DNA of 58,681 nucleotides, the filler included, from Sphacelaria rigidula (taxonomy: Eukaryota), in assembly GCA_964200075.2 (NCBI GenBank). It is 6 parts of 6 records of this genome, joined end to end, with 100 filler letters (N's around TTAATTAATTAA, not from the genome) between each part and the next. Parts side by side here need not be neighbours in the genome. Positions count along the whole stretch, not along the records: positions 29,393 to 39,089 come from CAXNAA020007946.1; 5 more parts are not named here. One strand, 5' to 3'. A model generated the notes under the pieces. It saw only the letters and a list, made by a program, of their open reading frames with translations. It had not been told where the DNA came from and did no database searches. A program made the position numbers and the translations under genes. This document shows positions 3,110-48,885 of the stretch, piece by piece. Each line of letters starts with the position of its first letter. Position 1 is the first letter of the stretch.

Positions 3110-3733
3110 AAAAACTTGTTGAAAAGTGCATTTTTGGCCCTTCTCCATCGTTTTTCAAGAGAGCTAGGGGGATGTGGACACCTTGTAATGACTTGCTCTA
3201 CGCGCTACAACCGTTGTAGAGCACCTTTGCGTTTTCCGCAGGTCACAGCCCCGTTTTTAGCCACAGTTACATTTTCAATAACAACCGGTCAAGTTATAAA
3301 AAAAAAGGCAGTTTCCCCCATATATATTTTTAACTTGACCACTTGTTATTGAAAATGCAAGTTTGGCCAAAAACGAAACTGTGACCTGCGGAAAACGCAA
3401 AGGTGCTCTACAATGGTCTGTCTCAGCGAGTATAGTAAGTCATCTCACGGCGTCAACATGCGTCTAGCCCTATTTTCGGGGAATGACAACGGAGAAGGGC
3501 CAAAAGTGCACTTTTCAACGAAATTCATGACTTGATACATAAGAAGTAGCCTTAGACCATCTTTTATTGCGATCAACCATCTCGATTCTTCCAACATCGG
3601 GGGGGAAAAAGTCGGGCAACGCATTTTGTGGGCCCCGATTTCGACCAAATCGGGGTGACACGATCTCAAAAGTGTTTCCTGATTTTTTTTCGAAAAATTG
3701 GGGGATATCGTTCCGAGATCGTAACTCCCCCTA
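3110..3733 (-). mobile_element. Palindromic (foldback) DNA-transposon end, copy 2 (inverted relative to copy 1)
   Basis: Internal palindrome ~3115-3520 centred near 3315. The flank ATACATAAGAAGTAGCCTTAGACCAT is the reverse complement of ~105-131. Ends CTCCCCCTA at 3733. Confidence 0.7.
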
Positions 3734-7576: not shown

Positions 7577-8766
7577 AGAGTTATGCTCCAGCGGGGCGTA
7601 TACAGTGCCATGGGGGTTCCGTCACAGTGCGGTCAAAATCGCGTTGTCACTGATCCCATCTCATGAGCTAATCTCCGCAAATTGCGCCTCACTAGTATTG
7701 CGCAGGGTCCTAACTTGAGCGGCCACGCCGAGCTAGCGACCCACCGCATTATGCTGGGACCCTCACTGGACAATAGGAGCCAGAATCGTGAGTATGGTCC
7801 GTTTCATGTGGTTTTTCATATACTGCTACGTACGGTAGTGCCGACTCCTACACTTACAGATAGTCATGAGCCACCTAGGGTTTGGGTAACATCTCCGTAT
7901 TCTTGTCCACTCTTTGTATCGTGATTCACAGACAACAATAGTAAGGTATCACCCGGCAGAGTAGCTAATATGATGCAGTGGAAGCAGAGGGCTCACGGCA
8001 CTATGCGAAGAGACTGCGCAAGCAGAGCATACACCAATCGAGATACCGAGTGGTGCAGTTTTTTAACAAGAACCTCAAGTGCCCAAATTAACCCCCCCCC
8101 CCCCCCGAGGGGGTAGATGATCGTATGACTATGGCATACATGATCATGAGTACATCCCGAGGGGGTAGGGGGCGGGGGAGGGCTGTATGCATCAAATTCC
8201 AGTCTTCGGACACCCCTTGGCTACTTGAAAAGTCTGCAGGTACTCTACGAGTAGAGATCTGCAGAGGCTTGGTTAATCTATGAGACTTTACCGGGTCCCG
8301 TGTGCATGAGTCTCTCGCCGGCTTCCCGCGTGAGGCTGATGCCGCGATAGCCCCCCCGGAAAATTGGCTGGTTTATTGAGGAGAAAAAATCTGTACGTAT
8401 ATCAAAATGACAAGAGCCGAGCACACCGAGCAGCTGGGGACTTTCACGCTTGGAATCATCTTCGCCAATTTCGCCCATATGAGGCGCTTCATGCATTATA
8501 AAATCAGCTGTCACGCGCTGTATGGCAATTTTCTTCGTGAGAGTTTGGGTTGGTCTGGGGGGGGGGGGCTATCGCGGCATCACTCGCAAGATATGCGTAA
8601 TGGGAGGAGTTTGCTATCTCAAGTCCCTTCTTCGTTATTTACCCCCTTCCGCAGTTGATCCCGGCCTCGAGAAATCGGGGCGACGTACAGTAGACGACCC
8701 AGGGCTGATCGATGCCAAAGATAAGATAATAGATAGCATGAGTAGGTATATACACATCAAAACATT

Positions 8767-8937
8767 GCACACCTTGGACAACATATGGTCAACAGTTGCA
8801 ATAGACATAAAACGTATTGCATAAAGTATAGGCCTATTGCGACTATTGTCGGCCGGCAATAGTTGCAATAGGCCTATACTTTATGCAGTACACTTCTCGT
8901 CTACTGCATGTATTGACCATATATTGTCCAGGGTGTG
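8767..8937. mobile_element. Foldback MITE / long hairpin
   Basis: Near-perfect palindrome centred on TCGGCCGG (~8852), with ends CACACCTTGGAC...GTCCAGGGTGTG. Related fragments lie at ~11700-11780, ~13215-13280 and ~20550-20612. Confidence 0.65.
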
Positions 8938-9698
8938 AAACATTGTAACACAGAAATTTCCCACACCGATTTATTTGCCCGCGCAAAATATACAACAAAA
9001 AGAGCAGTTTGAGGAGTGGTCAGATGGAATCCAGTAAGTCTGTGATCTCCACCATATTCGCCGATGCGACGTCGTTACACAGTATAATCGCCGTTCGTAG
9101 GGGGGGGGGTGCGTTGCTGTCAGCCGAGGGACAATCATAGGGCGGCTATGACCCAAAACTCCATGCCTTCACCATCCTGCTGCGGATGCTGATCGTATCC
9201 GTGGCTAGCCTGACGTCTGAGAATCTTCGATAGAGCGGGCTCAAAGAGGAACGAGGACAAGCACTACGCGAGCGCGAGATTGACCAGGTGCTCGATGGGC
9301 GATCAGCGTTTTCCAAACATTTTCATCGGAACAGCAGACTTGAGAGGATACCATCCCCACGAGTAAACGTCTTTCTAGCTCAAAACGCAAGCGCTGGCGC
9401 CATGCAAGGTGGCATCATCCACGGTGCACTATCCTAAGAATAGTCCAGGTTGTGCTAGGCACGCAATGCTTTATCGGAAGGGTCACGAGCTGAAATGAAG
9501 AAAGATCGCTGCAAATTATCCGGATGGTGAGCGCAATAGACGCTAGTTGTTTTATATTTGTTTTCCTGGAACCGGCACTAGATCTATCTTGGCGTCTTTC
9601 TCATTATTTTCGTTCTCTTCCCTTCCCTCTCCCCCCCCCCCCCCCCCCCCACCCACCCACCCCGCGCACGACGCGGGGCGCACCGCGGTCCACACCGA

Positions 9699-19595: not shown

Positions 19596-19810
19596 AGGTG
19601 ATTGAGTGCGAGCCTGGTCCGGCGAAAACCCGGCGTGCTCCGTCCCGGCTTTGTAGGGATGCGAGGTCAACGGTCAGATGACAACGGCATGCATGATCAT
19701 GAGTACACCTCCCCTCTCCCTTGCTCCGTCTCGAAAGGGATGCGTGGTCTATGGTCAAATGACTAAGGCAAGCAACAAATGAGTACGCCCCCTCCCTTCC
19801 TCCCTCCCAC
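19596..19810 (+). mobile_element. Two tandem 3' ends of the ATGAGTAC/C-tract retroposon family (variants A and B)
   Basis: GGGATGCGAGGTCAACGGTCAGATGAC...ATGAGTACACCTCCCC is followed by GGGATGCGTGGTCTATGGTCAAATGAC...ATGAGTACGCCCCC. Confidence 0.65.
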
Positions 19811-21417: not shown

Positions 21418-24400
21418 AAAAGAAGAACCAAAACACTACAATGAACGATGAATGAATAATGAATAAATCGAAAACTAAAAATGAGAAAATGAAGACCCAA
21501 AATACCAAAATGAAAAGTAAAACATAGGAAGAAATCGACAATTAGAAATAGAAAACAAGTGAAAAAAATGGAGAACCGAAACACTAAGGCCGGTTCTTTT
21601 ATTCTGAAAATGGTCACTGAAAATAGTCGTTTTGGTCAGTTTCCATAGACTCTTGCGAGAACGCGATCTTACAGGGCCATTTTTCGTTCCAGAAGTCTCT
21701 GAAAACTGAGAGCCGTTACCAGGTAGCGAGATTTTCCCAACTCTCGTTGAGAAAAGCCGTCGGTTCCCAGTGAAATCAAACTGTCTGAAAAGGGACGTTC
21801 CATCACACACTCTTCGCACACCATACCCGCAGTGATATATATAGTCAGTGCTCCATCACACACTCCCCGCACGCAAGTGTAGTACAGTCAGTGCAAAAGT
21901 AGCTGTGCATGTTCTTGGTATAGTACCGTAGCAGGAGCGCAGGTGCTGCAGCACTCCGTGCATCGTTTCATGCCCGTAGGACCAGGGACAGACAGTACAG
22001 TACAGTACAGTGCTTTTTCGCCGGAAGCGTTACTACTATGAAACAGAACGGTGTCGCCCCTGCTGGCTGTTTTGACTGCTCGTATCGTTTCATACTCGTC
22101 GTGCCCGCCACCGATTGTTTACTCTGTAGTATTTTCTGTGTTCCGGACACGGTTGCTACCGCACTATTGATGGTGACTGTCACGTGAGTTTGTTGTGTGC
22201 GGTATGGCACAAACCATACTGCTGAACACTGAACCGCTTGCGACACTACTGCTGTACCAAGCAGCGGTCGGCTGAAGTGAGTGTTTATGCGCTTGTCATT
22301 TCGGTCCCTACTATACCAGTAGCCACTGTGTACGTGTTTTGCCATCCCATCTATCCTGTACCTGGACGGGATTACATGTTAGTATACCTTAGGTGGCACA
22401 AGCACAAAATGCAAATGATGACCAATACCACCGGCTGCACGCAGGCAAGATGACGGCCTCGGGTGTACAAATCCTCTGGATTTTTTCATAGAATATGAGA
22501 TGGGGTTTTGAAAATCGACTTCTCTGAAAAAAGTCCTCGACAACGCCCAAAAACTTTTTAGTCTAGAAGAAGCGGCCAAAAATGGAAAACAGATACTCTA
22601 AAATATTCTTGCCTGTTTGTGGAAAGTTTTGGATCGTATCACACACACATGGGGGGATGGGGGGGCGCGGGAGACGGTTTCATGTTATCTTCACCCCGTT
22701 CAACTCGCAGTTTTACCCCTCCCCAAGTTCCGTGCTAGTCTTGCCGAACCTAAATACTTGCTCGATAATTCCACGCTCAATAGTACTCCTTACTTCTGCA
22801 TCACGGTGATGTCCTCCCCCTAAAATCAAGCAAGCAAACAGGATACCACTCCCTGTATTGCAGGTGTACGGTTCATGGGACCCCCCCCTGTAGCGAGAAA
22901 ATGATGACTACACTATGAGATGGACGGTGGTCACCGACAGCGAACCAGAAAGGAGATATGTTTCGGCTCATGTATGGAGCAAGAAAAAAAAAATGTAATA
23001 GGCGCTCAAATAAATATTGGAGGTGGCTATTACAAAAGGGGTATAAATGAACAGTGCTCCTCCGCCTCGAAAGAGATGCGTGGTCAGTGGTCAAACGACC
23101 AAGGCGAGCAACAACGGAGTACCTCCACCCCCCACCCCTCCCCACCAAAAAATGGACGCGTTACCTTGCTGAGAAGACGGTAGGTGCCGCCGTACGAATC
23201 GTCGTTGAGGATGATCTCCTGGCCCGTGCGTACGATGCGAGTAACGGCGGAGAGCGCCGCCATGCCCGTGCTGAAAGCGAACGCCTTGTGTCCGTCTTCC
23301 AGCTCGCATATCTACGGTGTTCAGAGCGGAGGGGAGGGAGCATATTTGTGATCATGCATGCCGCAGCCATGAGACCGACGGAGCACGCCGGGTTTTCGCC
23401 GACCAGGCTCGCAGTCGATCACCAAGTCCGAAGCGCCATGACGTGTGTCGGCGAGTCGGATGAAGGGGTGACCTGCATCCTACGAAGATTGTTTGGCCCG
23501 AAGCGTACTACTTCTCTTCCATATGGATGACAGCCTCTAAGTGAGAGGGGCGGGGGGGGGGCGTACTCATTTGTTAAGTTCTGATGAAAAAAAATGACTG
23601 CATTCTATGACGGGTGGGCTCTTCCCCTCATGTAACGTACCGCTGCGAGCACTTTTCAAGTGTATTAATAGTATACCCCTTGAGGACCACAGCCCTCGAT
23701 GGGGAGGGTGACTCCTAGAGCCGGGAACGCTACGTAAGGGGAAGGTTTAGTTGGTGAGACTCCGAGTCTACCAGGGCTCTACACGTTACACGTTTCACGT
23801 CGAAAGTCAAGCCAGGCTAGTACAACGGTGGGGGGCGGGAACCACTTGGAGAGCCCTCTTTAGAGGTCAAGTCGAATCAGGGCTTCTCGTGTGCTCCCCC
23901 CACCGTAGTAGAAGCCTTGCTCAACTTTTGACGTGAAACGTGGACGTGTAACGTGTAGGGCCCTGGAGTACACCTAGGCAGGAAAGGAAGGATTGTGCGC
24001 CACCTTGGTTGGTACTCTCCTTCTGCACTCCGCACGAGCGATCACGGCGGGTTTCCTTCAGGGGAGTGAAGTCCTCGACACCCCGCGGCAGTGCAGCGCA
24101 ATCACTACGGCGGGTCAAACCCACTCCACGAAACTGCAAATAGCGCAGCACACTCACGTGAACATCAATTTTCGATCCAGTAAATCCACCAACTCTATTC
24201 CATATTACCTGCTTCTCGAGCGCGGCGCGGGTAGGGTTGCCCGAGCGTGTGTAGTCGTAGTCACCGAAGGTCGTCGCCGATGGCTGCGCAAAGGTGGACA
24301 CCTGCAGTGATTTTTCAAAACACATTGCAAGCGTGTGTTGGGGCGGGCTAGAGTATCTGATACATGCGGGTATTTAGAAAAAATCGTACCCTCACAAGTG

Positions 24401-28019: not shown

Positions 28020-28152
28020 TCGCGCTTGGTGATTTGACTGCGAGCCTGGTCTGGCGAAAACCCGACGTACTCCGTCCCGGCTTTGTGGGGATGCGAGGCC
28101 AATGGTCATATGACTATGGCATGCAAGGTCATAAATACCCCCCCCCCCCCCC
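28020..28152 (+). mobile_element. ATGAGTAC/C-tract retroposon 3' fragment (variant A)
   Basis: TGCGAGCCTGGTCTGGCGAAAACCCGACGTACTCCGTCCCGGCTTTGTGGGGATGCGAGG followed by a C run; matches 19597-19720. Confidence 0.7.
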
Positions 28153-29392: not shown

Positions 29393-32300
29393 ACACCCGT
29401 TCCCGCTGCCAACGACGACCTGGCGCGAAATTTCGAGCGACAAATGGCCCAAGATACCACCCCCGCTATCGTAGGATGACTCGTAAATTCAAATTTCGAT
29501 CGGCCGGGGAAGGCGCGACTCGTGAAGTCTCTATCAACTCGACCTCAGAAAACAATGTACGGGAGGTGTTACCACGGAACCCGCCGACAGTACCCCTCAA
29601 GGAAGTGGGTAACACCCCCCGTGGAATCGGGAAAGCTGCCGGTGGTAGGGCCCCGGAGGTACAAAAGTCAACTCCATCGGCCAAGGCCAAGAAAAGACGT
29701 ACACCACCCAAATCCGTCACGGGCACACCACCACAACATGCTGACGTACGTGCATCGAGGCGGAAGAGAGCCGCGGTGAACAAGCCGGAGGTTGACAGCG
29801 TATGGGGAGCGTGGCATGAACAACAGCAGGCGGCGCTGCAGCACAGAAACGGCATAAAGGAGGATCAGCTGATGGCAATACCATCTCCCGAGGAAGTGCC
29901 GATGTCCGTATCCTCATACAACTCAAGATGGGGTCCTACTCGGGGCTCACCGGGGGAGATTTCCACGCCGTCGGGACACCGTAACAAGCGACCAGGCTCA
30001 CCATACACCTCGCGACCAACTCGTGCAGGCGCGCCGGCGTCAAAATCGAAGCGGAAAACGAAGAAGGCTACATATGCTGCCGCCACTGGGGTTGACCATT
30101 GCAGAGTTGAAGGTCTCGGCAGCTCATCTTGCGCGGGTTCGGAGCAAGAGCAGGTAGCGCCGGCGCCTACGAACGGGGCTGCCCGCGAGCTAATGACGCA
30201 TCCCGACCGCGGGGCAACACCTCCCGATACTAATCGTGGTGAACATCGCGCGCGCGGTGAAAGAGAGAGATTGACGACGCGACGCAACAGTTCTCAAGGT
30301 CTCTCTGGGAATCATGGTACCTGCAGGGGGGTGCATGCTGCGCCGCCGGGCCTACCCCGGTTAGTGGAACGAGGAGGGGGAAAGGACGCAAGCGTGTTTG
30401 CAGTCGTGATGCGTATGGCATGCAGTCTCCCTTCTTCGACCACGAATGCAACACGTATTCTTCTTGCGGTCAGGTACACGACCGAGCATCGCGACTGTGC
30501 GTCGCCTGCCTTCGATCAGGGCCCGAGGAAGGCAATATCTGGCGTCATCTTGGCGCGGCGCGAATCACTGAGGCTCGGCAATTTCTGGAGTCGTGTGCGG
30601 ATGATGACGGTGTACGCCCGGTTGCGCTTGTGAAAAATATCATCCGAGTTCAGATTGCTTGTGCAGCCGGCGTGATTGTTTGTGGCGCTCCATCGATCGA
30701 CACAGGATAACGAGTACTAGACGGAAGGCAAATTCCCTTCCTCCGGTTAGCTGCACACCCGTGACTGTCGGTTTAACACCCCCCCCTTCGCCTGCCGAGC
30801 CGGTTGTTGCAGAGGTACGCCAAAACGTGATTGCGACCGTTGAGGAGGGGCGTTTAGTGGGAGTGGAGGATGTTCAATCCTGGCTGACCGAAGCCAGAAC
30901 CGCAGTGAACGCCCGGGCTGTTCTAGACAAGCGCACCAGGGAGCAAGCGCTGAGAATTGTCGATGTAGTGGCCGCGGACGGTGCAGTCGACGCCAAGCTT
31001 GAGAAGATAAGCGGGGTTGATGCGGCTGTATGCGATGGGCGACGCAAGTTTATCTATCTCGTTCCTTCGGTGGTGGCGCTCGAGGTAGCCATTGCGGCCG
31101 ACGTTCAACTTGGCAACATGCGTACGAGGGTACGAGAGTTGGAGCGCTCTGTCTCTCGCCTCACCGCCGAGATCAAGACTGGTCAGCCTATTGAACACGC
31201 ACTCCAGCGGGTGACAGCTGCCAGTTCGGAGGAGGATAAACGGGCCGTGATCATAGCGGCTGGGTCTATCGTCAGGGTGGACATTGAAAGTGCACACAAA
31301 CTGAGGAACGTATCGGGGGATAGGGACCTGAAATACGCCGCCGACATATCGAGGAAAATTAGACCCATGAACCAATTTTGTAACGGATGAAACGCCGCCG
31401 GCACTGTTGGCATTGCTGAGCAGTCTGTTCCATTTTCAAGTGTCGAGTGATGATCTGGACTTGCTTTTACCGCCAGTGGATGAAGCCAGAAGCGGTAGGC
31501 GAGGGGATTCTGTTCACGCGCCTGGCACCGCTGGGGCGGATGATGTCGACATGTCGGCGGCGCGGGATGGTGGGGCGGGTTCGATGAGCACCGCAGTCGG
31601 GTCTGGTGGTGGAACGGCGCAACACGAACACGGGGGCGCAGCTCAAGGGGGGTCGGCGATGTTCCGCGCCAGCGCAAGAACACACGGGTCGGCCGCGCGG
31701 GAAAAGGCGCTGCGCAATAAGATGAAGAAGAGGAAGAGGCGGGATGGGAGACTGTACATGCTCGTGCAAAACCTCGTCAAAACTGTTTTAGGCCGAGGTT
31801 TTCGAGCAATGCACGACTTCCATCTGGCGCAGGTGTTGATAACGCACGGCACACCCGTGGCTGTCATCGACTACGTAGCCGCCCATGGATTCTGCATGAC
31901 AGAGTCGATGCGGTAGGTACAAGCGGGAACAGTTCTACGTGAAGTGGAGGATGGACAGATATTTTATGGCCCTCGCATTACGGGTCGCTGCGATTCCTTG
32001 GGACAACTGCAATTTTCGGCCAACGACGCGTGTAACGGGGGTTGGGGCATATGTAAGTACTATAGCGGCCTCCTGCGTGGCCGTGGAGACTCTGCCTGGG
32101 CATCTATCGCTCATGCACGCGCACCGGCGGCAAGGTGATCTGGTCGCCGCGGACATCACGACGGGACCCTTCTGGCACAGGGACGGTGATCAATGGGAGC
32201 TTTTCCTCTCCGTATTCGACGATGCAGCCTTTCGTTGTGCGGTGGGGAGGATCGCAGGTGAAGGTGGCCACATCGAATTTGGGTTGGAGATCGAACTTGG

Positions 32301-32877
32301 ACAGGTGGACAGAGTCGGCAAAATTTGGGTGCTCAGTAGTTGGTCGGGATATTAGTGTCGAAAGATGGCGAGATCACGCACCTGTGCGTGGGGCGCAGTG
32401 TTGCGTCTGGCATGATAATATTTAGATCTTGGAGCTGAGCTCGCCTCAACATCAGGCTGTTTGCACTTGAGCCAGGGTTAGGGTTAGGTGATGACATAAT
32501 TTCGCTCGGACGCCGCGCACGGGTAATCCAAGTGTATTTGCTCGCACCAAGTAGGTTGGCAAGGTGCGGATTCGAAAGCCCTGGAGATGCCGTTACTGCG
32601 TTTCATAACCGGTACTGAGACTGCATCGTAAACAATTCACGAGCAAGAGACAAGGAGAAGACGAGTCTGTGGAAACATTTCAGGGAATGCACGAGTGCTT
32701 CTCCTATTTCCGATGCAAGATTAAATGTCGCGCGCAGCGGGAGGTATTCCATGGTGCGACATGCGCACCTCGCAGAGTGGCACGGATTGAAGGTGTGAGG
32801 GTGGACAAATGCCTAACGGAGTTTATACCCTACATCATCCGCGCTCGTGTGCGCTTATCCTCGACTCCCCCCACCAG

Positions 32878-35107
32878 GTGATACCGATGATGCAGAGGGA
32901 GCCGCAGGTGTTCAAGTACCTCTTCATGCAACTGGGCACCACGAAGAGTTGGTCCGACTCGAAGGCCGCGATCGACCATCTTGCCGATATACGCCGCGTG
33001 GACGAGAGGGGCGCGGCGGCGGCCTGCATGGTTGCCGGCGATGAGGAGACATTCCGCTTCATGTATCACCTGATTCGGAGTAACCCAGGCCACTATCACT
33101 AGGCCAGAATATACGTGGGTGACTGGCACCTTTTGTACCACATGGCGAAGGCCATCATGAACCGGTTTTGAGGAGCAGGGATAGAGTTCATCGCAGAGGC
33201 GCTTGGCGTGGACGGAACAAAAGCATCGGAGGCTAGCAACCATCGGATGGCACACCATACCATCAGCGTGTTCTTCGAAGCAATGTGGGGTACAATCGTG
33301 GCCATGTACTACTCCGAGCATGGCGGCGATACGGACGTGACCAACGCCGGAGCCGCGGCGAGCGATGCCTGTGAGGTGCCGGACACTGCCATAGCACCAG
33401 AATCGGATCCCGGGGAAGCATCAGCACGAGCACTTGGTGCGGCGACAACGCCACCTATGCCACCGGACGCCCCGAGAATAGTGCACCCTGCGGGACCCGT
33501 CACAGCATTACCTCTGCAGATAGACAGTATGGCAGCGCCTGCAGTCGGCGTTCATACGGAGGCACCTTCCGCGACAGTAACAACACCACGCGGTGCGGGG
33601 GTGACAGAGCATGTCGGCGCGGGTCGACAGTCGAGCGGACCGCGGGGCCTGCAGTCTCCAAGTACTGCAGTGGCTGAACTACGCAAATGTCGTGGTGAGG
33701 GTTGCACATCAGCGGCGACGCACGGAATCAGAGACATGAGAGATCCGATATTCTGCGTAATCCACGCCAGCGCAGGGCTGATAGATTTCCGCGAATATGG
33801 CACGGGGTTCCGCGAATTGTCGTCCACTACCGACAGAGGACAACCGCCCGCGCCGGACTGCGGCGGCGGCGGGGTAGGCGGCCGCGCCGACGGCAAAGCG
33901 GTGGCCGCCGATATGGGGCCATCTCCCACATTCGGCACATCACCAGTGTCGGGCGCCGGCGGCCGAATATGATCCGCCTCCAGCATGGCATCGACGGCGA
34001 CCACTACCTCAGGAGCAGCGGCGGTGGCGGCGCCCAACGTCAGCGGCGGCGAGCGCAGTGACGACCATGAACCCTTCGACAAAACCGTGGAGCAGCTGGC
34101 AGAAGAGTTTCGCGACATAGCTAACGAGGTGAAGGCGCATGAGAGGAGGGAAGACATTCCTGCCATTCGACCTTGGGTTCGGGCCCGGGCGGAAAAACAC
34201 AAGAGCTTCCGAATTTGGGAGAGCTTCGTCCTTCACTACTACCCCGCGTATATGGCATTCCGAACGGGCCTGCGCACAGGCAACTTCCTCCTTCGGCTGG
34301 CAGGGCTCCGCCGCATGGCATCCATATTCTGTATGACAGGTAAAGACCGTTACCAGTGGCTGGTCGTGCTACACCTTATGCACATGGCGCGAATGCCGGA
34401 ATCGGACCTGAAGTTCGTCGAACAGCTGATCTCGGTATCGTTACGCGACAACAGGTACTGGGCAAGGGTGGGACTTGATGTGCGGCAGGAGATGGCGAAC
34501 AGGTCCTTAAAAAGAGTCACGAACAAGAGGACGCCTACTGCACTTGAGAAACTTGCTCCAATCGCGGAATGACGGGATGTGGCGGAAGCAGCAGTGAAGG
34601 AACACTTGTTATGTGGGGAGGGTGCCGGACGGAACCGTGGAGGAGAGTCGTCTCTCAAACGTCAGCCCCCCGTAACGAAGGCGTATCAGAAGCTACACAG
34701 CACTCCTGCCTTTACGCCGGCCGGCGAAGAGGCCCTGCATGCGCTGGACGGGCGAGTGGTCAGCGGACCGTAGGCAGCGGCCAATTTGTCTTGCGCCGAG
34801 TTGTCGCAGAAGAAGCTGGAGGACAACATCGCGTGTTACGTGTTGGGCGACAAGACTAAGAAGGGGGCAACGAAGCAGAAGGTCTATACCATCCCACCAA
34901 AGAACACAACAACCACACCGACGGCGACTCAAGGCTGGAAATCGACGCTGAAGTCCAACACCAAGAACAACACCATGTACAGGCAGGAGCTGCTGACCGC
35001 TTCGAGAGGGATTGTGGGGGCGCCCGAAATTTCCCAGGAGGAGAAGGAGAGGGTACTTCTCAAGCTCGGAGGGTCTGTCCCATTCAGCATTCTCAATTCC
35101 AACGGAG
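32878..35107 (+). pseudogene. Core transposase exon of the Academ-like element (one frame, five in-frame stops)
   Basis: Acceptor CCCCCCACCAG at 32877 and donor G|GTGAG at 35108. The listed ORFs 32809, 33208, 33985, 34579 and 34786 share one frame, separated only by stops at 33100, 33169, 33970, 34570 and 34771. Confidence 0.75.
33688..33792 (+). other. EsV-1-7 cysteine-rich motif, in frame within the transposase
   Basis: CRGEGC-TSAATHGIRDMRDPIF-CVIH-ASAGLIDF = C-x4-C-x16-C-x2-H-x3-G-hydrophobic, the spacing that defines the EsV-1-7 repeat. Confidence 0.75.
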
Positions 35108-38100
35108 GTGAGAGGAATACCTCATGCTGGCCAGAGTTGCAGTGGACACAATGCCGGGAAACGAGCACGTTCACATCGCACTCGGCCGTAGGCAACTTGC
35201 AGTTTGGCTGTGTCTGACCCTGGGGATTGTTTTTACCGTCAGTATACTAGTGCCAGATGCTTTCGCACATATTTGTAGTGATCATTCCTAACGGCCATCA
35301 GATCGACACTGTTTCTACCCTCACGCACAGTCATCCTCTGCCATACCACCCCTTTTCTCTTATCACCGCACCCCCACGTTGCCTACAGGTTTAGGGCATT
35401 CCAACAAGAGCGTCGCAAATCAGTGGATACGATCCGCTTCTCCCGATGGCGAGCAACTCGACCCGTTCTACGTAGCTCAGGATCATGCCGTCGACTACGC
35501 GACGGAGGTCCACCGCGAACCTCCTCAGGCCGCGACTGAGGGCGGTTATCCAGCAGTGGAAAGCTATCATGTCGACAAGGTGCATACCGAATGGACCGAC
35601 GCCGGGACCGAGCTATTGATAGTTGCTCACGACGACCCCGATGCCGTGGGAATCATGAAAGCCCACGAGCAGCGAGGGCGGACAGGAAAGATGCGAAAGG
35701 GTCAGACGAAATTCCGTCCCACATCGACCAAGGCCCTGCCCCGCGGGTCAGGCTTCCAGAGCTGGCTGCGGGAAAACAGCAAACGGGCGAGAAACTATCT
35801 GGCTAGCGGTGTTTTCAAGCGAGTATTGGTCGAAAATCACTATGAACCTTTGATAGTGACATACGGTAGACTGCTGCCGAGATAGCCCCCCCCCCCGAAC
35901 TGGCCAAGAAAGTGCACGGAGGCGATGGTCATAAATTTATAGCTGGTTTCGTGCTGCACGACGCAACTCATTTGGGCGTTCTAGCTCATTTCGGACTGCT
36001 ACACACCTCTCATGTGAGCGGAACTGCTGCTAACGAGCCCAATAGTGGGATTGCAGCCGGTTTGTCGAATGGTCTCTGGTGCACTTTTTGTCGGGGGGCT
36101 ATCTCGGCATTAGTCGGTACTGGAATACCGCCCGCCCGAAGCGGCTCCACGCCAAGGCTTCCGGTGGAAGTAATGGGCAATGATGTTGGCGGCGGTGGCG
36201 GCGGCGGTGTTACCGTGCGAAGGAGGGGCCGCGACACCGGCGGTGATTATGACATGCGCGGTGGAACACGCCGATGCTCTTGGACGCACAGAGGGGGGTG
36301 GAGCCCAGCAGTGGGATGCGACAGTGATGATGGGCGAGCTGCCGGGGGGGGCGGTGGACACGGAAAGGGCGGTAGAGGCGTCGAGTGCGAGTGTTTACGG
36401 CGATAGTATTTCGATGGGGGCCAGCGGGTGAAATTTAGCGGCGACATCGGTTGGGGGGGAGGGGGGGGAACGGCGGTGCCGCGGGGTGGCGGCAGCTGCG
36501 GCCGGCGGAGGCGTCGATTGCAGCGATCTGGCAAGGGCGCCCCCGCGGACATATCTTGAGGTGGTGACAGGTAGGGGAACAGGTGAGGCGGCGGCGGCGC
36601 CGAGGAGGGCGCCACGCGCTGGTATCGGCGCCGACGGGGGGTCCGGACGACTCCACCTTCGTCTCTCGTGGCGTCATCGGAGAGCGGGAGCGTGGACACA
36701 GCGGCGGCAGCAGAACCAAATTCACCACGTGCTGGGGGGGGGGCACCGTTCCATTGGTGAATTGCAACCCCATCTATTGTGGTGGCATGATGGCAAGGGG
36801 CCTGACCGGAGCATCCATAGCGCAGTCGGACCCGGCATAGGTGACGGGGAGATGTCCGCAATGCACTTCATTATTCACTCCGGGACGTTTCAGAAGCATT
36901 TGAAGGAATGGCTCGTGACTTCCACTGATACTGATCAGTGCATAGTTTTCCTGTTGGCCATGTCCTGCGGGCATATCGACGTACAAGGCTCCAACGCGGT
37001 GCAGGTAACTGTCAAACGCATTATGAACGGAGGCCCCCGGTGCATACTGGTGAACAGAGTGTACAGCGCCATCGTGACTCTGAGGGACGGGAGCGAAAGT
37101 GCGTGGCCTCCCGAGGGACTGTATGATTGGCTGACTGACACATCCTGTAAACGTAGCGCTGTTCGTTTCCACCTACCTATTGGCTGGCTGCGACTTCCTG
37201 ACGCGTATTTCCGGGATCCCCTTCCCCAAAATGTGGGAATTCGTTCTGAAGGCACTGAGAACGCCGATTCTGTTCACGAAAGCGATAGTGGTGATTGACG
37301 AGGGTAAGGCGAGGGTGGAGGTGGACGAGGGTGTCAAGCTACTGGCCACGATCTTTTTCTTCAGGTACGAAAACGCATTTGCGCAAGTCGCTGCGGATCC
37401 TGGACATCTCTTCACCACGACCGGGCAGAATCTGGAGTCTTTCGTGAACAAGATTCGTCTGTGCATTGCCACAGTACATGGGCACATGCCTTCCCGGTGC
37501 TGCCCGGACTTGGAAGCCTGCCAGAAGCACGTGGATAAGGCCGACGTAGTATTGGAATACTGGGGGGGGGGGGGGCTTTGGGATGAGCAGNNNNNNNNNG
37601 CGCTCGGACAGAGGAGGGGGGTAAGGGCGGCTTTTTTTTGGGGGGGGGGGGGGGGGGGGGGGCTTTGGGATGAGCATGCCCACATTGAACTTCAACGGGC
37701 GCGGATGGGGCGTTGAACCAGAGAAAAAAACTCACCACAAGGGTGGGGTAAAGGCGGCGAGCAGAGGGGCGGTGGAGCTTACACGGGACCACATAGTTGT
37801 ATACTTGTCAAGCCACACGTATGTCGATACATCCGAGATTGTGCGAACCCTGAGATGCGCGTGCAAGCCGGAAAGGGCGGCGCGAAGACGTCACTGGTGC
37901 CGGGATTAAAGATGTTTGGGGCGTTGTAGGCTGAGCTGCGGTTGCCAGGGCCGCTGCTTTTTGCCGCCACCCCCTGACCCAGCGGCCGACGCTACTGCTA
38001 CAGGTCATTCCGCCGGAGAAAATGTCGATACGTCCCGCCGACGTCGTAAGGGGAGGGGCGGATCCACGGCGAACCGTGGAAGGGGCGGGTCAGCGGCGTT

Positions 38101-39032
38101 GCGTGGCGGGGGCAGGTAAATGGAGCGAGGAAGGCCCCGGGGGCAGGTGTTGATAGTAGTCATGGTGAGGAGTGCTGCCGACGAGATGGCGAGAGGATGG
38201 CGAGGGTAGCGGGAGAGAAATCGGATCCGGGACCAGATCCTAGCTGTCGCAGTTGTTGCGACGGCGGTCTAGATGATCCGCCAGAGGGCGGATCGAAGCA
38301 TTCAGTCGGGATCTGGCTTGGAGATTCAGATTCCGAGTGTAGCGACTCAGAGGAAGAGGATCCGGCATCGGAAGCGGGCAAAGACTACGACGACAAATTC
38401 GCGTTTCGATTGCACCTGTATCGAAAGTCGTAGACATGTTTGTTGCAGATGAGTTGCGTAGGTATATAAGTAACCGTGGGAGTTATCTTCCGCGGACGGA
38501 AGTTATAACCCGTGCGAAGGGTTGATGGGGACGTTGTCGAGTGCCTGATGCAGTGCGCCCTTGTGTGCAGACGTCTACAGCGGGTCGTCCGGCGACACCC
38601 TTGGGCGAATCGCCGGTTGTATCTCAAGATAATGTGTGATACTATAATTGTGGAACGAACGACTAATATAGCGAGAATGATGATCAAGACGCGGTGTTGC
38701 AGAAAACCTTATGGAACACTGTGCAGCACGACCACCACATGCGCGTGGACTGCAGTCGTGAGGCGGAATTCAAAGCGCTCTGCACCGCGGGCGAACCGCC
38801 ACGAATATTTGGTGTGATAACAACCGATCTTGAAAATTGAGGACAACGGTTTTCATTGGCGATGATGAGTCGGTTTATTATAATCTTCATGTATGTGGAC
38901 CCTTTAGTTCTCAATATGCCTGCATTCCTTCACGTGCCGATAGCTATCACCAATTTCTGCATGCCATACAAGATTGAAATCCGATAACCGAATTTCTGGG
39001 GTCCGATGTGTATATATATGTTCTGTTGCGAT

Positions 39033-39066
<34 letters not shown>

Positions 39067-39089
39067 GGAGGGGACAGGGAGCGCTTTTT

Positions 39090-39189
39090 NNNNNNNNNNN
39101 NNNNNNNNNNNNNNNNNNNNNNNNNNNNNNNNNTTAATTAATTAANNNNNNNNNNNNNNNNNNNNNNNNNNNNNNNNNNNNNNNNNNNN
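39090..39189. other. Artificial contig linker
   Basis: N44-TTAATTAATTAA-N44. Confidence 0.98.
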
Positions 39190-39259
39190 CTCGAAAGGGA
39201 TGCGTGGTCAATGGTCAAACGACTAAGGCAAGCAACAAATGAGTACGCCCCCCCCCCCC
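39190..39259 (+). mobile_element. ATGAGTAC/C-tract retroposon 3' end (variant B) at the contig start
   Basis: CTCGAAAGGGATGCGTGGTCAATGGTCAAACGACTAAGGCAAGCAACAAATGAGTACG followed by a C run. Confidence 0.7.
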
Positions 39260-39885
39260 TTTAATCGGAAAACGTTTGAGGTGGACGCGCAGTTTTTATC
39301 CATCTCCTTGATGTGTGGTCCAGTCGTGCTCGACTGTGATGGACGCGGTCAAAGGCTCCTGTATCCAAAACACCCCAGACACTCGGTCTTCCCCACTTCT
39401 GCCGCTTACGTCCACGACCGCTCGGTTCGTCCCACTGTTATTTCTCCTTGTATCCTATAACTGGGTGGTCGTGGCCGTCATACAACATGATCACCTCGCC
39501 CGCAGAGGTCTTCACAGGAATGCTGCAACGACACATCCACTGCCAACGATCCGTGCAGCACGCCCTCCAGGTGAGCATAGACCAGATCTGCAGAGAGCTT
39601 TCGGGCCAAAGTTTTCACTTTGAAATTCTTCGACACGAAAGAAGGGGGATATAAAAAGCAAGGCGCGCACTCCGTCCTCTCGTGCGGCAGACGAGTCGTG
39701 TCAATCCACGCGCTTTGTCCATGTTTTTACCCATCTCTTTGGGTACCTCTCTCTGTCCCCGTCTCCTTGGAAGTTGTATGTTTCACTCGATATTGGGAGT
39801 GCATGCTGTATGACGGTCTCCCGCCCCCGCCCCCATTCTGTTGCCGCATAACGCGCACGTCGGTGCTTCGTGCTTTTGGATGCAG

Positions 39886-43300: not shown

Positions 43301-45426
43301 GTGGCGTTCAAGTTTTTTTTTTACGATACGCTTTTTTTGCGCTTTTGCTTCGTACCGCCAGTGGGTTTGTGTAAGGCAAGTAGAAATCATCAGTTGTTGA
43401 TGTTGAAGTTGCTACTACCAGAGGCGAAAGTGGGGACTGTTTGGGTGTCTGTCATGTGTTGGTTGGGTCGATGGCCGGCCCGTTACGATGCAGAGGATCG
43501 TGCACAAAGAGACAACGGCCAGATGTGTTCTACTATACTACCGCAAAACAATACGAATCTTCGAGGGTAATTACGTCATTCCCGGCCAACACATGTCAAC
43601 AAGTTTACCGAGTTGTTTCTCCCGCGTTTCCAACGGTATTTATCTTGGAGCATGTTGGAAACCCCTTCACGCTTGTTTTTTCCCGACAAACACTCGAGAC
43701 AAGACGCAAACACGTACGCACACAAATATCGAGTCCAAAAGTCCCTCCTCGCCCTCGCCCCTGGGTACTACACGTCATTGCCAAATTACACCTCTGTCTT
43801 GCTCACAAATGGTCCGGAAAAAGGTATAATAATTGACTTCCGGATGCGGGGAACGACAACCTGCACGTGATGATAGCTTATTTCCGAACGTCGTGTCTTA
43901 GGCTGGTTACTGTCTGCAACAGTAACAGGGTTGACAAGAGCGTCTGTGCGTCTTCGCCAGCGCAGATATGTTGGGCGACCATTCGCAGCCAGGGTTGGGC
44001 TTAGAATGGACCGCATAGTTTTCGACGTACGCGAAAAAAACGGTATATTTTTTGCCGGGAGAGGCGGAAATAATATTGAGGCTGTTTTGAAGTAATGCAC
44101 CTCATATTTCGGTCAATTTTTGGCGTATGTTGAACGAAAAAAAAAAAAGCAAACGTATTTTTTGTCTTCGGCGTTCCTTGCGGGGGAAACATACCGCCTG
44201 CTGCTCTCCTCTGCGCTAGCGCAGACAGTGCTCCCGGGTTATTGTTGAAGCACGCGATTTTACAGATTGGGGATGGATTTTTTCTTGGGGATGAGAACCC
44301 CGAGAATTAAAATCTTCGTATCCACATCAAATCTTCGACATATGGTTCCATTTTTCCACTTCCTGGTAGCTTTTGACAACTACTACACGCATACAAGTTT
44401 GCGTTTCAGTAACCGGAATATTGAGGTCCTAGGTGAAAAACCAATTTTGGGGACTTTTGGTGATCCGATCGGACCCCAAATTGTTTCTATCTAGGACCCC
44501 GATATTTCGGTTATCGAAATTCAAAACCTGTATGGCGTGTAGTACTGGTCGATAGCTACCAGTAGGTGAAGGAGTGGAACTATACTTCGAAGATTTGGTG
44601 TGGATACGAAGATTTTAATTCTCCGGGCTCTCATCCCCAAGAAAAAATTCATCCCCAATTTGTAAAATCGCGTGTTGAAACCCTGGTCCATACTTCAATC
44701 GTGTGCCTCCATGAATACTAAGGATGCATCACAAGTGTCCTGTCTGTGCTATGTTTCCAGGTCCTCGGGTATGTCTCGGCCGGGATTTGCAAATTGAGGC
44801 TGGTTGTAGGTTGCCGCGACTCTTCCCTCCTACTTTTTTCATTTAGACTTGTTGGCTGTGAGTCATCATCCAGGTGGAGGCAAATCGAAGATTATTCGAC
44901 ACCTGAACATACCTTCCGCAATGAAGCTTTCAACGTGTTCAAAACTTCATGCCGTGCCCCGTGGCCTCTGCACTCCCATCATGTGCCATGTATCTTGTTA
45001 AGCATGTCAAAGGTTAACTGCCCGTGTTGACCCCCCCCCCTCGCCCCCTGCTCTCTCTCTCGTCCCCACTTCTTTCCCCCTCCCGAAATTCCAAACGCAC
45101 AGAACACGTGCGATCCAAAGTGGAACGAACCGCTATCATTCACGGTCCCCACGGGGACACTGGTGGACGCACAACTGTTCCTCAAGGTTGTGGGGAAACA
45201 GAAGGTGAGGGACGACATAATTCTGGGGCGCGTGGAGCTACCTCTAGCGGGCATCAACAGTGCAGACCCTTCTGCTGTCATTGGAGAGGCAAGTAGCGCC
45301 GGTGGCGGCGGAGCAAGGGATGCGTATGCGGCGGATGGTGGCAGGTGGTTCGCGCTGGAGGAAGGGCAGGGCCGTCTTAAGATCGATGCGGAGTTGGTGA
45401 AGAGGAGACCGTCTCTTATAGTGTAA
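39886..45426 (+). CDS. 3' exons of a protein with a C-terminal C2 domain (partial gene)
   Basis: The C2 domain is split over 42897-43028 (VLRVTILEAEGLRNV..TDSYV..RTSVKK) and 45103-45426 (NTCDPKWNEPLSF..LFLKV..DDIILGRVELPL..WFAL..GRLKI, ending TAA). Upstream phase-0 exons 39886-40002 and 40437-40877 are probable. 39504-39570 and 42760-42831 are possible. Confidence 0.8.
40262..40362. repeat. (GTT)n plus (CA)n microsatellites
   Basis: Directly visible. Confidence 0.9.
41312..41666 (+). mobile_element. tRNA-derived SINE, copy 2
   Basis: A-box TGGCTCAGTTGG. Body and 3' end are colinear with 7240-7576. Confidence 0.7.
41760..42020 (-). repeat. Dispersed repeat, homologous to 26110-26345
   Basis: Nucleotide and translated similarity, e.g. 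GCGGGTTCGTGTGTCGATTACC vs ACGGGTTCGTGTGCCGATTACC. Confidence 0.65.
44251..44674. mobile_element. 424-bp foldback MITE in the C2-domain gene intron
   Basis: CACGCGATTTTACAGATTGGGGATG...CATCCCCAATTTGTAAAATCGCGTG, with arms pairing over ~200 bp. TGAA lies one base outside each end (possible 4-bp TSD). Confidence 0.8.
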
Positions 45427-46574: not shown

Positions 46575-48814
46575 GAGAGGAGGGGGGGCAATCGTATCGC
46601 GTAGGAATTGGAATGCTCTGTCGCCTCTTTGGGATGGGCTAGCACGTATATCTACATGTAGCACCTGATTCGGCATAATGCTTGGAGTGCCGTTCTGCGA
46701 AGTGTACCCTATAGAAAATGTTGCATGTTGTGTACTATCTGTTGTGTTGTATTGTGTTGTGTACAACTGTTTCTCCCCTGTCCATGTCGTTCGTCCCAAC
46801 CTTGAATTTTGTTGATGGAGTCGCTTCTCTGTTTTTGCGTTGTGGTACATTGGAGCTGTATAGAGGGCAGTGCTCAGGCATATTTGAAACCTCAGGATAG
46901 AGTGCGGCGTGTTATGTTTTGTTGCCGATTATGAGTATGCACGGAACACGTGAACTCCAAAGCGGAGGAGCGGGGCGTGTAAAGCCAGCTAGCGGCCTCG
47001 GTGCGTAGTGCCGGACATGTTGACGGTCTGTCCACGGTAGGACCGGGTGTGTTTCGACCGAGATGGTGCCACAGAGAGTGACGTTGAGACGTTGCTACAG
47101 GCAGCATAGAGATCGATGTCCAGCGACATGTGTGTAGCTTGAGGGCGCTTTGCCCGGAAAAAATCCACGTCGAGAGGAATATCTTCGTGCATCGCAGTTG
47201 TTCCCGGCAACAATTTACACGCCCCCGCCGTGGTCCATGTTAGTTCCGGACACGTAGCAACCTTGTATGAGGGAGAAGATTATCGTCGCCAGTGGTTCTT
47301 GCCATGCAGGAACGTTGTCTCTGAAAATCGTTGAGCGTGCTCTGAGTTTCGTGTGGAAGCTGTTGTAGTAAGTTTTCAAATGCGTATGATTGATAGCCCT
47401 GTTATTCCCCTTGGCGCGAATTCGTCCATTTTGTTCTTGTGTTGTTGCGCTTTCGTGTGTGTCGGCGTTCAACGAGAATGTGGACTAAATTGCGAAAAAC
47501 GTGCCTTTGCGTTGTCGTTCCTCCTGTGGTAATTTAGAACAGGGGTACAGCACGCAGGAGATGCGTACGAGTTTCAAGCGATTGATCCATGATGCCCTGC
47601 ACAACATGGCAGACGAATCATTTCAACAATTATATGTAATAGTGATTCATTCAGAGGGGGCTTCAGTGTTTTCGACTCTCGAGTAAGTACCGAACGCACG
47701 ACACGGGTGCGATTGCAATGTGCGCTTTTCCAAGGAAAATCTCACCCATCAACAACCGTGCATGGAGCGGTCACAGTCGTGATTCATTTTGACTGTATGT
47801 TAGTACCATGTTGCGTCAAAATCTTCATGGTATGCTTTACGTATCACGTTGACAGAGACCCAGACGCGCGGGAAAATTACCCATTTATTTTAATGGCCTT
47901 GCTCAAGAGCGGATGAAAGATGCTCGGGAGGTTGTATTTTGTTGCAGGAACATGATGACACTGCTCGTACTTGATGCACGAGCCACGGATATAGGTGTCG
48001 ATTAATGTTACCTCGGAGATATATCTTCACATATATATATATATATATATGGCATACTCGTGTGATTACTCCCCATGTTTACTTGAAATACATGTTGCAG
48101 CGGGAATGGATGCGGCGGTAATATACATGGCACTTTCACCGGTCCATACCCCGATGGGGTGGAGGGATCACATCCCACGTACATCAAGGAGGAAAACGCA
48201 CTACTCAGCTCGAAGACACACACATGCTGCGCAGCCAAATTCAGCTGAAACAGGGGATTTCTGTGATATTTTCGAACTCGGCGATTTTCGATAGTGTTCC
48301 TGCGTGACACCGCTCATCCCAGGGAACGTTTGATCGCAATATTTAGGTATTGGAATATACGAGGCATCCGCTGCCCATTCCGAAACAAAATCATATCCGC
48401 ACTCAATATTGAAGAGATGACACGCTGACCGGTTTTTGGGAGGTCCTGCCATCACCCAACCCATCCTTCTGATCCTTGGGGATTTTTGCTGGATTGCAGC
48501 AATCCTGATCGTTCTCGTGAACAGATGAATAGAAGTGTTTGTGTAGAACTCTATATTGTTACCTATTCACTGCGCTAGACCCGAAAAAATGTGTTTTTTG
48601 GACCACTGGCGGTCGCTGACACCTCTTGATAAACGGGATACTTACTCTGAATCAGCCTGACGACATCAGTTGAGGGTTATGTTCTGAGCACGACTTGCTT
48701 CACACTTACAGCGATGGTGCCCAAGGACTTTTTTGTAGGCCTGGTGCCCCTTGATCGCGTAGATACGTTTTCAGCGCATTGTACCGTCATTTCCCCTGAT
48801 TTAAGGGTGGCAGG

Positions 48815-48885
48815 GGAGGGGGGGGGGCGTACTCATTTGTTGCTTGCCTTAGTCGTTTGACCGTTGACCCCGCACCCCTTTCGCG
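48815..48885 (-). mobile_element. ATGAGTAC/C-tract retroposon 3' end (variant B) at the contig end
   Basis: A G run followed by CGTACTCATTTGTTGCTTGCCTTAGTCGTTTGACC, the reverse complement of the 39190 copy. Confidence 0.7.

Follow-up and report, generated by a model that had tools for sequence, protein, structure and literature searches.

The AcademX lineage and its superfamily, Academ, were reportedly described by Kapitonov and Jurka in 2010, with hosts that Kojima is said to have given in 2020 as animals, Chondrus and Puccinia. The core of AcademH is of the DUF6589 type. According to the accessible text of a published report, AcademX combines 3–4-bp target-site duplications (TSDs) with a nuclease, whereas AcademH combines 9–10-bp TSDs with a helicase (PMC10045372). 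The available part of a further paper describes EsV-1-7 motifs as widespread in brown algal genomes and places one on an Ectocarpus Mariner transposase (PMC12477816). The present analysis concerns a stretch of 58,681 nucleotides from Sphacelaria rigidula (GCA_964200075.2), hereafter the window, which consists of six contigs joined by N spacers; the element under study lies in one of them (CAXNAA020007946.1, positions 29393–39089), and the flanking contigs are unrelated. We conclude, with a probability of about 0.88, that it represents an autonomous AcademX-type cut-and-paste transposon of ~13 kb, here in a near-complete but dead copy.

Architecture and decay of the window copy

The element comprises the following features, both of its terminal inverted repeats (TIRs) being missing from the contig.

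29483–39030, plus strand: internal ~9.5 kb of the AcademX-type element, without either TIR
29483–32304, plus strand: coding exon lacking its 5′ part, with a basic low-complexity N-terminus, a Cys cluster (~30400–30700), a helical region and the first catalytic D (WDN, 31999–32007)
32305–32877, plus strand: putative intron, GT...AG, placed by a conservation drop and by phase; donor GTGAG in distant copies, weakened here
32878–35107, plus strand: coding exon; second D (AGDEE, 33034–33048), GDWH (33118–33129), helical insertion, catalytic E (34489, in LDVRQEM, 34474–34494), post-core helices
33330–34050, plus strand: family-specific insert of ~250 amino acids (aa) separating the second D from E; an EsV-1-7 Cys motif (33688–33790) flanked by Ala/Pro/Gly-rich arms
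35108–35388, plus strand: intron, GTGAG...CAG; spliced GT..AG joint in sequencing run X8
35389–35868, plus strand: N-region of a FEN1/XPG-type nuclease; D 35493 (VDYATE, 35490), DD 35631 (HDDPD, 35628), K..E..GR 35658 (KAHEQRGR)
36120–36782, plus strand: Ala/Gly-rich spacer of ~220 aa between nuclease N and I regions; frameshifts at ~36485 and ~36640; open in copy L045
36783–37590, plus strand: nuclease I-region and helix-two-turn-helix (H2TH) part; E 36849 (GEMS, 36846), STDTD 36921, GCDF 37186, P..H...YW 37504–37566 (PDLEACQKH, 37504; EYWG, 37555); frameshift at ~37130
37856–37960, plus strand: CXC (TCR/LIN54-like) Cys tail, its Cys at 37856–37951; one Cys changed to W, TAA stop at 37907
37961–38409, plus strand: low-complexity and acidic C-terminus; frameshift at ~38110; the family's reading frame ends after FAF
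38410–39030, plus strand: 3′ non-coding part of the element, with 41 matches, mostly at 84–92%; the contig ends at a poly-G run

A sequence-only reading of the window had described a very large, GC-rich AcademX-type transposon with broken open reading frames (ORFs). All of the motifs that it named are present in the order given and on the plus strand, including GRGWG (37697) and an R-x-G readable as LRTGNF in frame 3; GC content is 0.583 in the element against 0.488 in the rest of the window, and ~13 kb is indeed very large. The ORFs are interrupted by real stops and frameshifts, but two introns and a nested miniature inverted-repeat transposable element (MITE) explain part of the breakage. 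Its span, 29476–38433, requires revision: family sequence begins at 29483 and continues past the contig end, the supposed start codon at 29476 belongs to a separate repeat, and the end at 38433 reflects read-through, the ORF of other copies ending right after ‘FAF’ at ~38409. Among its low-complexity inserts, the N-terminus and the Ala/Gly-rich spacer at 36120–36782 stand, whereas 35900–36115 is the MITE and 33330–34050 includes the EsV-1-7 motif. The N-terminal Cys cluster that it called extra is probably not so, since four of four full-length animal relatives checked have a Cys-rich N-terminal region, in a comparison by presence and not by demonstrated homology.

A third-codon-position excess, measured against copies less than 85% identical, follows one coding path through the element. 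Of the 2,357 codons on this path, not counting the spacer, six are in-frame stops in the window copy, which also has at least eight private frameshifts and is dead. The exon at 29483–32304 has four frameshifts (~30350, 30640, 31375, 31915), and that at 32878–35107 has five in-frame stops (33100, 33169, 33970, 34570, 34771). The GT...AG ends of both introns are conserved in most copies. The exact joint of the second intron occurs in run X8 at depth 657 versus 0 in X1, with matching loose ends in X6 and X7, where X6–X8 are guessed to be RNA, all come from one study, and have contigs derived from family members, not necessarily from the window copy. No spliced joint of the intron at 32305–32877 was found among the rows listed from these probable RNA runs. 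Other copies suggest a third, upstream intron and a start codon there.

The window copy is the most complete of the mapped loci, yet it lacks both ends, and only other copies reveal the outer sequence, ~2.0 kb on the 5′ side and ~1.5 kb on the 3′ side. Because family sharing stops at these distances from the part in this contig, the full element is estimated at ~13 kb.

Homologues, folds and phylogeny of the catalytic domains

With the middle exon as query, its stops masked, phmmer retrieved 348 proteins at E ≤ 0.001, 37 of them at E ≤ 1e-30, with named homologues from Ectocarpus, Nemacystus, Branchiostoma, Lytechinus, Sycon and Prasinocladus (the last, P0103, labelled as a green alga). DUF6589 was detected in 26 of the 28 homologues scanned. 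As transposase profiles, the scans yielded only DUF6589 and none of the KDZ, EnSpm or Sola-1 Pfam families, the consensus sequences of the Ectocarpus giant elements lying outside this comparison. Pfam applied to the raw window frames returned only EsV-1-7, with no transposase or XPG family, and long DDE-core homologues, sought by word seeding, numbered 0 of 651. PDB searches produced chance matches for a single-sequence query and mainly acidic-tail noise for the DDE profile; the top ESM Atlas clusters were unnamed, and the named ones, at ≤0.86, serve as leads only.

Structurally, an AlphaFold2 model of the E. fasciculatus homologue (70 alignment rows, predicted local distance difference test (pLDDT) 73.9) matches integrases, P element, Hermes and Tn5 at Z 9.6–8.2. 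The closest are avian sarcoma virus (ASV) integrase (Z 9.6, root-mean-square deviation 4.2, 138 aligned), P element (Z 9.4, 5.7, 340) and Hermes (Z 9.1, 4.3, 178), and, in the RNase H manner, WDN and GD of the model each lie on a strand and E on a helix. For the nuclease, a model of homologue P0165 (43 rows) has ten top matches (Z 10.5–6.8) that are all XRN, EXO1, FEN1, GEN1 or XPG, including XRN1 and Rat1. Profile matches comprise EXO1 (E 0.013) for the nuclease and LIN54 (E 0.032) for the Cys tail. The D-D-E triad and the acidic residues of the nuclease are conserved. Core and nuclease occur in one chain in Nemacystus g15026.t1 and along one frame path in the window, and the nuclease is kept in every long family seen. 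The long spacer between its N and I regions, which also occurs in another family of the genome, presumably resembles XPG's own spacer in position. In intact copies the tail, which we take to be the cluster called ‘Cys8’, has nine Cys and aligns with animal CXC/TCR tails; the animal relatives likewise end in a CXC cluster, with TCR matches among them. Two of these relatives (P0127, P0139) carry OTU domains.

In a quick tree of 67 rows, unrooted (midpoint), built without reference Academ sequences and after 82 of 149 candidate rows had been dropped for <75% coverage, the window family groups with Nemacystus (Shimodaira–Hasegawa-like approximate likelihood ratio test (SH-aLRT) 98). These join Ectocarpus proteins and two other families of the genome in a clade (SH-aLRT 96) that excludes the animal rows as well as one Ectocarpus protein. 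This supports the divergent stramenopile lineage proposed from sequence. These relatives and the EsV-1-7 motif also indicate that the host is probably a brown alga. At least two further Academ families are present in the genome (L157, L158, L159, L160), with open exons of up to 925 aa; the intron-2 position is common to L157 and L158, and both have a duplicated spacer in the nuclease.

The same clade could be read as a separate, unnamed lineage of DDE plus 5′-nuclease elements that act like AcademX without grouping with Repbase AcademX. The brown-algal cores are just 22–27% identical to animal cores, and their own clade (SH-aLRT 96) comes from a tree without reference Academ. We nevertheless regard this as improbable: full-length animal proteins share the DUF6589 core and the order of motifs, as well as the nuclease and the CXC tail, and the 4-bp TSD described below agrees with what the accessible part of the AcademX report gives (PMC10045372).

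Dispersed copies, termini and target-site duplications

Copies were counted across the assembly of 244 Mb in 27,214 contigs. The nuclease region gave 261 candidates, of which 150 were scored and all 150 were matches, many of them in copies with stops; for the DDE core, 72 of 79 candidates scored as matches. Other searches gave 42 family matches, and 29 DNA matches for positions 34000–34600. The TIR, CAGTGTTACGCC (12–17 bp), is known from other copies: its 14-mer has 94 exact sites versus 2 for a reversed control, and a variant has 59 versus 13. Its CA..TG ends, we assume, fit the published AcademX end rule. Nine copies have both ends (3.7–8.6 kb, all below full element length); an exact 4-bp TSD flanks three of them (P ~5e-6), and two more have one mismatch, a transition. 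The AcademH-style TSD of 9–10 bp was sought in the nine copies, where the best 9-bp match was 5/9 and the best 10-bp match 4/10. The expected TIR and 3–4-bp TSD were obtained from other copies, the window copy's own ends lying outside the contig. Outcomes that the sequence-only reading had named as contrary, namely a best match to another superfamily or to a cellular or viral gene, absent TIRs and TSDs, or a lack of dispersed copies, did not arise.

Close copies are ~91–92% identical, and singletons among 16 close nuclease copies are spread 41/35/43 over the three codon positions, whereas differences shared among 13 DDE copies are spread 87/83/206. Purifying selection thus operated between subfamilies and neutral decay operates within the recent subfamily, indicating a past burst followed by decay.

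Several observations concern the form of the copies. A deletion junction from 29852 to 36211 (L088–L090, L111) leaves a form without the whole DDE core at four or more loci, and is also present in runs X6–X8. A second recurrent junction, 33309 to 37837 (L092, L095, runs X7 and X8), has a short telomere-repeat-like filler at the joint. At L102 (3914), the 3′ region of a family copy contains a second one. Part of the terminal motif recurs at positions 20–28 of the right end. The two end consensuses share one hexamer, at 44 versus 54, and an offset of 10 is the commonest (50 of 714 pairs); a 12/23-like asymmetry of the ends was considered and rejected as weak, as shuffles equal the 10-bp offset 8.7% of the time and left spacers run 35–45.

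The deleted copies that keep the C-terminal half of the nuclease and the CXC tail could be selected helper or repressor genes rather than passive non-autonomous elements, an explanation suggested by the excess of nuclease-region over DDE-core candidates (261 versus 79), the recurrence of the 29852–36211 deletion at four loci and the spliced family transcripts in probable RNA runs. It is nonetheless scarcely likely, as many copies carry stops, the DDE core occupies the middle of the element, which internal deletions would hit in any case, and singletons are near even by codon position in nuclease part a (41/35/43) and the CXC tail (44/54/48), part b showing a mild excess (47/55/73). An endogenous giant-virus fragment or decayed host repair gene, for which a Pfam EsV_1_7_cys match and weak Atlas neighbours (poxvirus G5 and XPG clusters of nucleocytoplasmic large DNA viruses, at 0.76–0.77) might speak, is very nearly dismissed, being refuted by ends and copy pattern in the form of TIRs, TSDs and more than 100 dispersed copies, together with spliceosomal introns and the DDE fold, and EsV-1-7 motifs are common in brown algae and occur on an Ectocarpus Mariner transposase too (available part of PMC12477816).

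Some results weigh against an AcademX-type transposon. Four of the nine two-ended copies lack a 4-bp TSD, two of them fitting 5 bp with one mismatch and two fitting nothing, and no fully intact autonomous copy was found among the family copies. The AcademX label rests on architecture and TSD, in a comparison set without Repbase or Dfam Academ sequences. RNase H-like DDE and FEN1 folds had been predicted from sequence, and the Z-score matches agree; Foldseek, in contrast, returned no match at E ≤ 0.001 for either the DDE or the nuclease model, ranking Transib, Hermes and RAG1 first for the former at E ≥ 0.055. Both models are of homologues and not of the window copy. That of the nuclease is modest (pLDDT 59.7), with its best scores going to XRN-type folds, level with EXO1 and above XPG itself.

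An EsV-1-7 motif within the catalytic insertion

The spacing from second D to E is 480 aa in the window copy and in L024, versus 224–261 aa in eight relatives, because of the EsV-1-7 insert. In the window copy the motif matches PF19114 at 27.6 bits (Pfam cutoff 25, E 2.7e-6), and in copies L024 and L025 it falls under the cutoff. At 12 other loci the motif region has an identity of 0.57, versus 0.2–0.43 in its flanks. The insert is a second case of uptake of this motif by brown-algal transposases.

Proposed mechanism

An intact element would yield one spliced protein of ~2,700 aa. By analogy with DDE biochemistry, its RNase H core would cut at the CAGTG ends and join the 3′-OH ends to the target with a 4-nt stagger, a cut-and-paste mode proposed because of the fold, the TIRs and the TSDs. 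The fused FEN1/EXO1-type 5′ nuclease probably cuts or trims the non-transferred 5′ strand, as a donor flank or flap. By comparison, hAT, Transib and RAG process this strand by hairpinning. The role suggested for the nuclease draws support from its retention in every long family and from the contrast between AcademX and AcademH in the accessible report (PMC10045372). More tentatively, the CXC and EsV-1-7 Cys modules may bind DNA or chromatin. Internally deleted copies without the DDE core would have moved in trans, and they now outnumber full ones.

Nested and neighbouring repeats

Three further features interrupt or adjoin the element:

29393–29482, no strand assigned: insertion of a small, high-copy TIR repeat distinct from the element (ends GAGTC...GACTC), represented by its right end; source of the spurious ATG at 29476
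35869–36115, no strand assigned: nested 247-bp MITE with TIR GACT...AGTC and TSD GGTA (4 bp); not present in copies L021, L022, L093 and L110
37591–37676, no strand assigned: gap in the assembly at a poly-G run, accompanied by a 28-bp duplication (37562–37589 = 37649–37676)

The repeat at 29393–29482 cuts the 5′ part of the element, so the ATG at 29476 is chimeric. It is absent from 19 of 19 other copies of the AcademX-type family; among 481 candidates elsewhere, 40 of 40 scored were matches, and both ends are visible at three of seven other loci. It is ~280 bp long, with a 4-bp TSD that is exact at one of three two-ended loci and has one mismatch at another. From its ends we assume it to be Sola-like. 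For the MITE, 40 of 40 scored candidates among 1,210 were matches, with a 4-bp TSD at eight of eight loci; a second copy lies within a different Academ copy (L029, 6859–7109). The gap and duplication at 37591–37676 are probably an assembly artefact.

In other contigs of the window, long imperfect inverted repeats occur at 134–563, 3157–3419, 8765–8940 and 44244–44681, and are probably foldback or MITE elements; 44494–44676 is similar to the 3′ region of the AcademX-type element. Another dispersed repeat, often at contig ends, occupies 19597–19807, 23060–23143, 28034–28152, 39184–39267 and 48800–48883.

Significance and comparison with known systems

The kind of element is known, and it seems unrecorded in brown algae. 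The term ‘Academ’ is absent from the text, Table 1 and five supplements, the parts available to us, of the 2025 paper on a curated Ectocarpus transposable element library, whose 51 ‘DNA/Unknown’ families lie outside the present comparison (PMC12477816), and from two Nemacystus supplements. No brown-algal Academ record was found in the literature searched, with Repbase and most subscription papers beyond reach, so that an entry may exist. The window copy itself is dead and ordinary; its interest lies in extending a little-studied transposon superfamily to stramenopiles. Ectocarpus gene sets hold Academ proteins, among them CBJ31386.1 (P0151), an Academ-type transposase publicly named ‘similar to solute carrier family 35, member F4’, though the accessible parts of the curated library list none (PMC12477816). 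In Academ, as in few other DDE groups, a second enzyme is obligate, and the abundant algal families provide material on the proposed link between nuclease and short TSDs.

A broader scenario, which we hold to be rather unlikely as a whole, would posit an old, unreported AcademX radiation in brown algae (at least three families in this genome, with Ectocarpus and Nemacystus) and within it a giant family, still transcribed and spliced, in which an EsV-1-7 finger captured in the catalytic insertion reads target DNA or chromatin and the ends differ by one helical turn in the inner motif.

Among brown-algal relatives, the DDE core is shared with Nemacystus decipiens g15026.t1 (1,802 aa), Ectocarpus siliculosus CBJ31386.1, E. 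fasciculatus CAN0060527.1 and Ectocarpus sp. CAB1107098.1 and CAB1112218.1. In g15026.t1 and CBJ31386.1 the nuclease likewise follows the core, CBJ31386.1 being 28–38% identical to the window. The Nemacystus and Ectocarpus relatives lack the EsV-1-7 insert and the long spacer, and their database names are not those of transposases. FEN1, EXO1, GEN1, XPG and XRN nucleases on one side, and P element, Hermes and Transib/RAG1 on the other, are predicted fold matches of the respective domain at 8–16% identity, but none combines the two in a single chain. TcMar-2_Ec32 of Ectocarpus is likewise a transposase with an acquired EsV-1-7 domain; as described in the available part of its report, it belongs to the Mariner superfamily and bears an N-terminal addition, whereas here the motif lies inside the catalytic insertion of an Academ-type core (PMC12477816).

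Unlike AcademH, for which the accessible report gives a 9–10-bp TSD and a helicase, the present family has a 4-bp TSD and a nuclease (PMC10045372). A six-frame scan of seven loci for helicase motifs found nothing in the window contig and a single stray DEAH in L159; it covered the outer 2 kb and 1.5 kb of the family only in part. The element measures ~13 kb, against curated Academ elements of bivalves that average 5,565 bp in the available part of that study (PMC10294476). It differs from AcademX in its brown-algal host, EsV-1-7 insert, long spacer inside the nuclease and at least two introns. Like AcademX, it unites a DDE transposase, a 5′ nuclease and a terminal Cys cluster in one protein, with short TIRs and a 4-bp TSD, the nuclease and the TSD being features that the accessible text gives for AcademX (PMC10045372).

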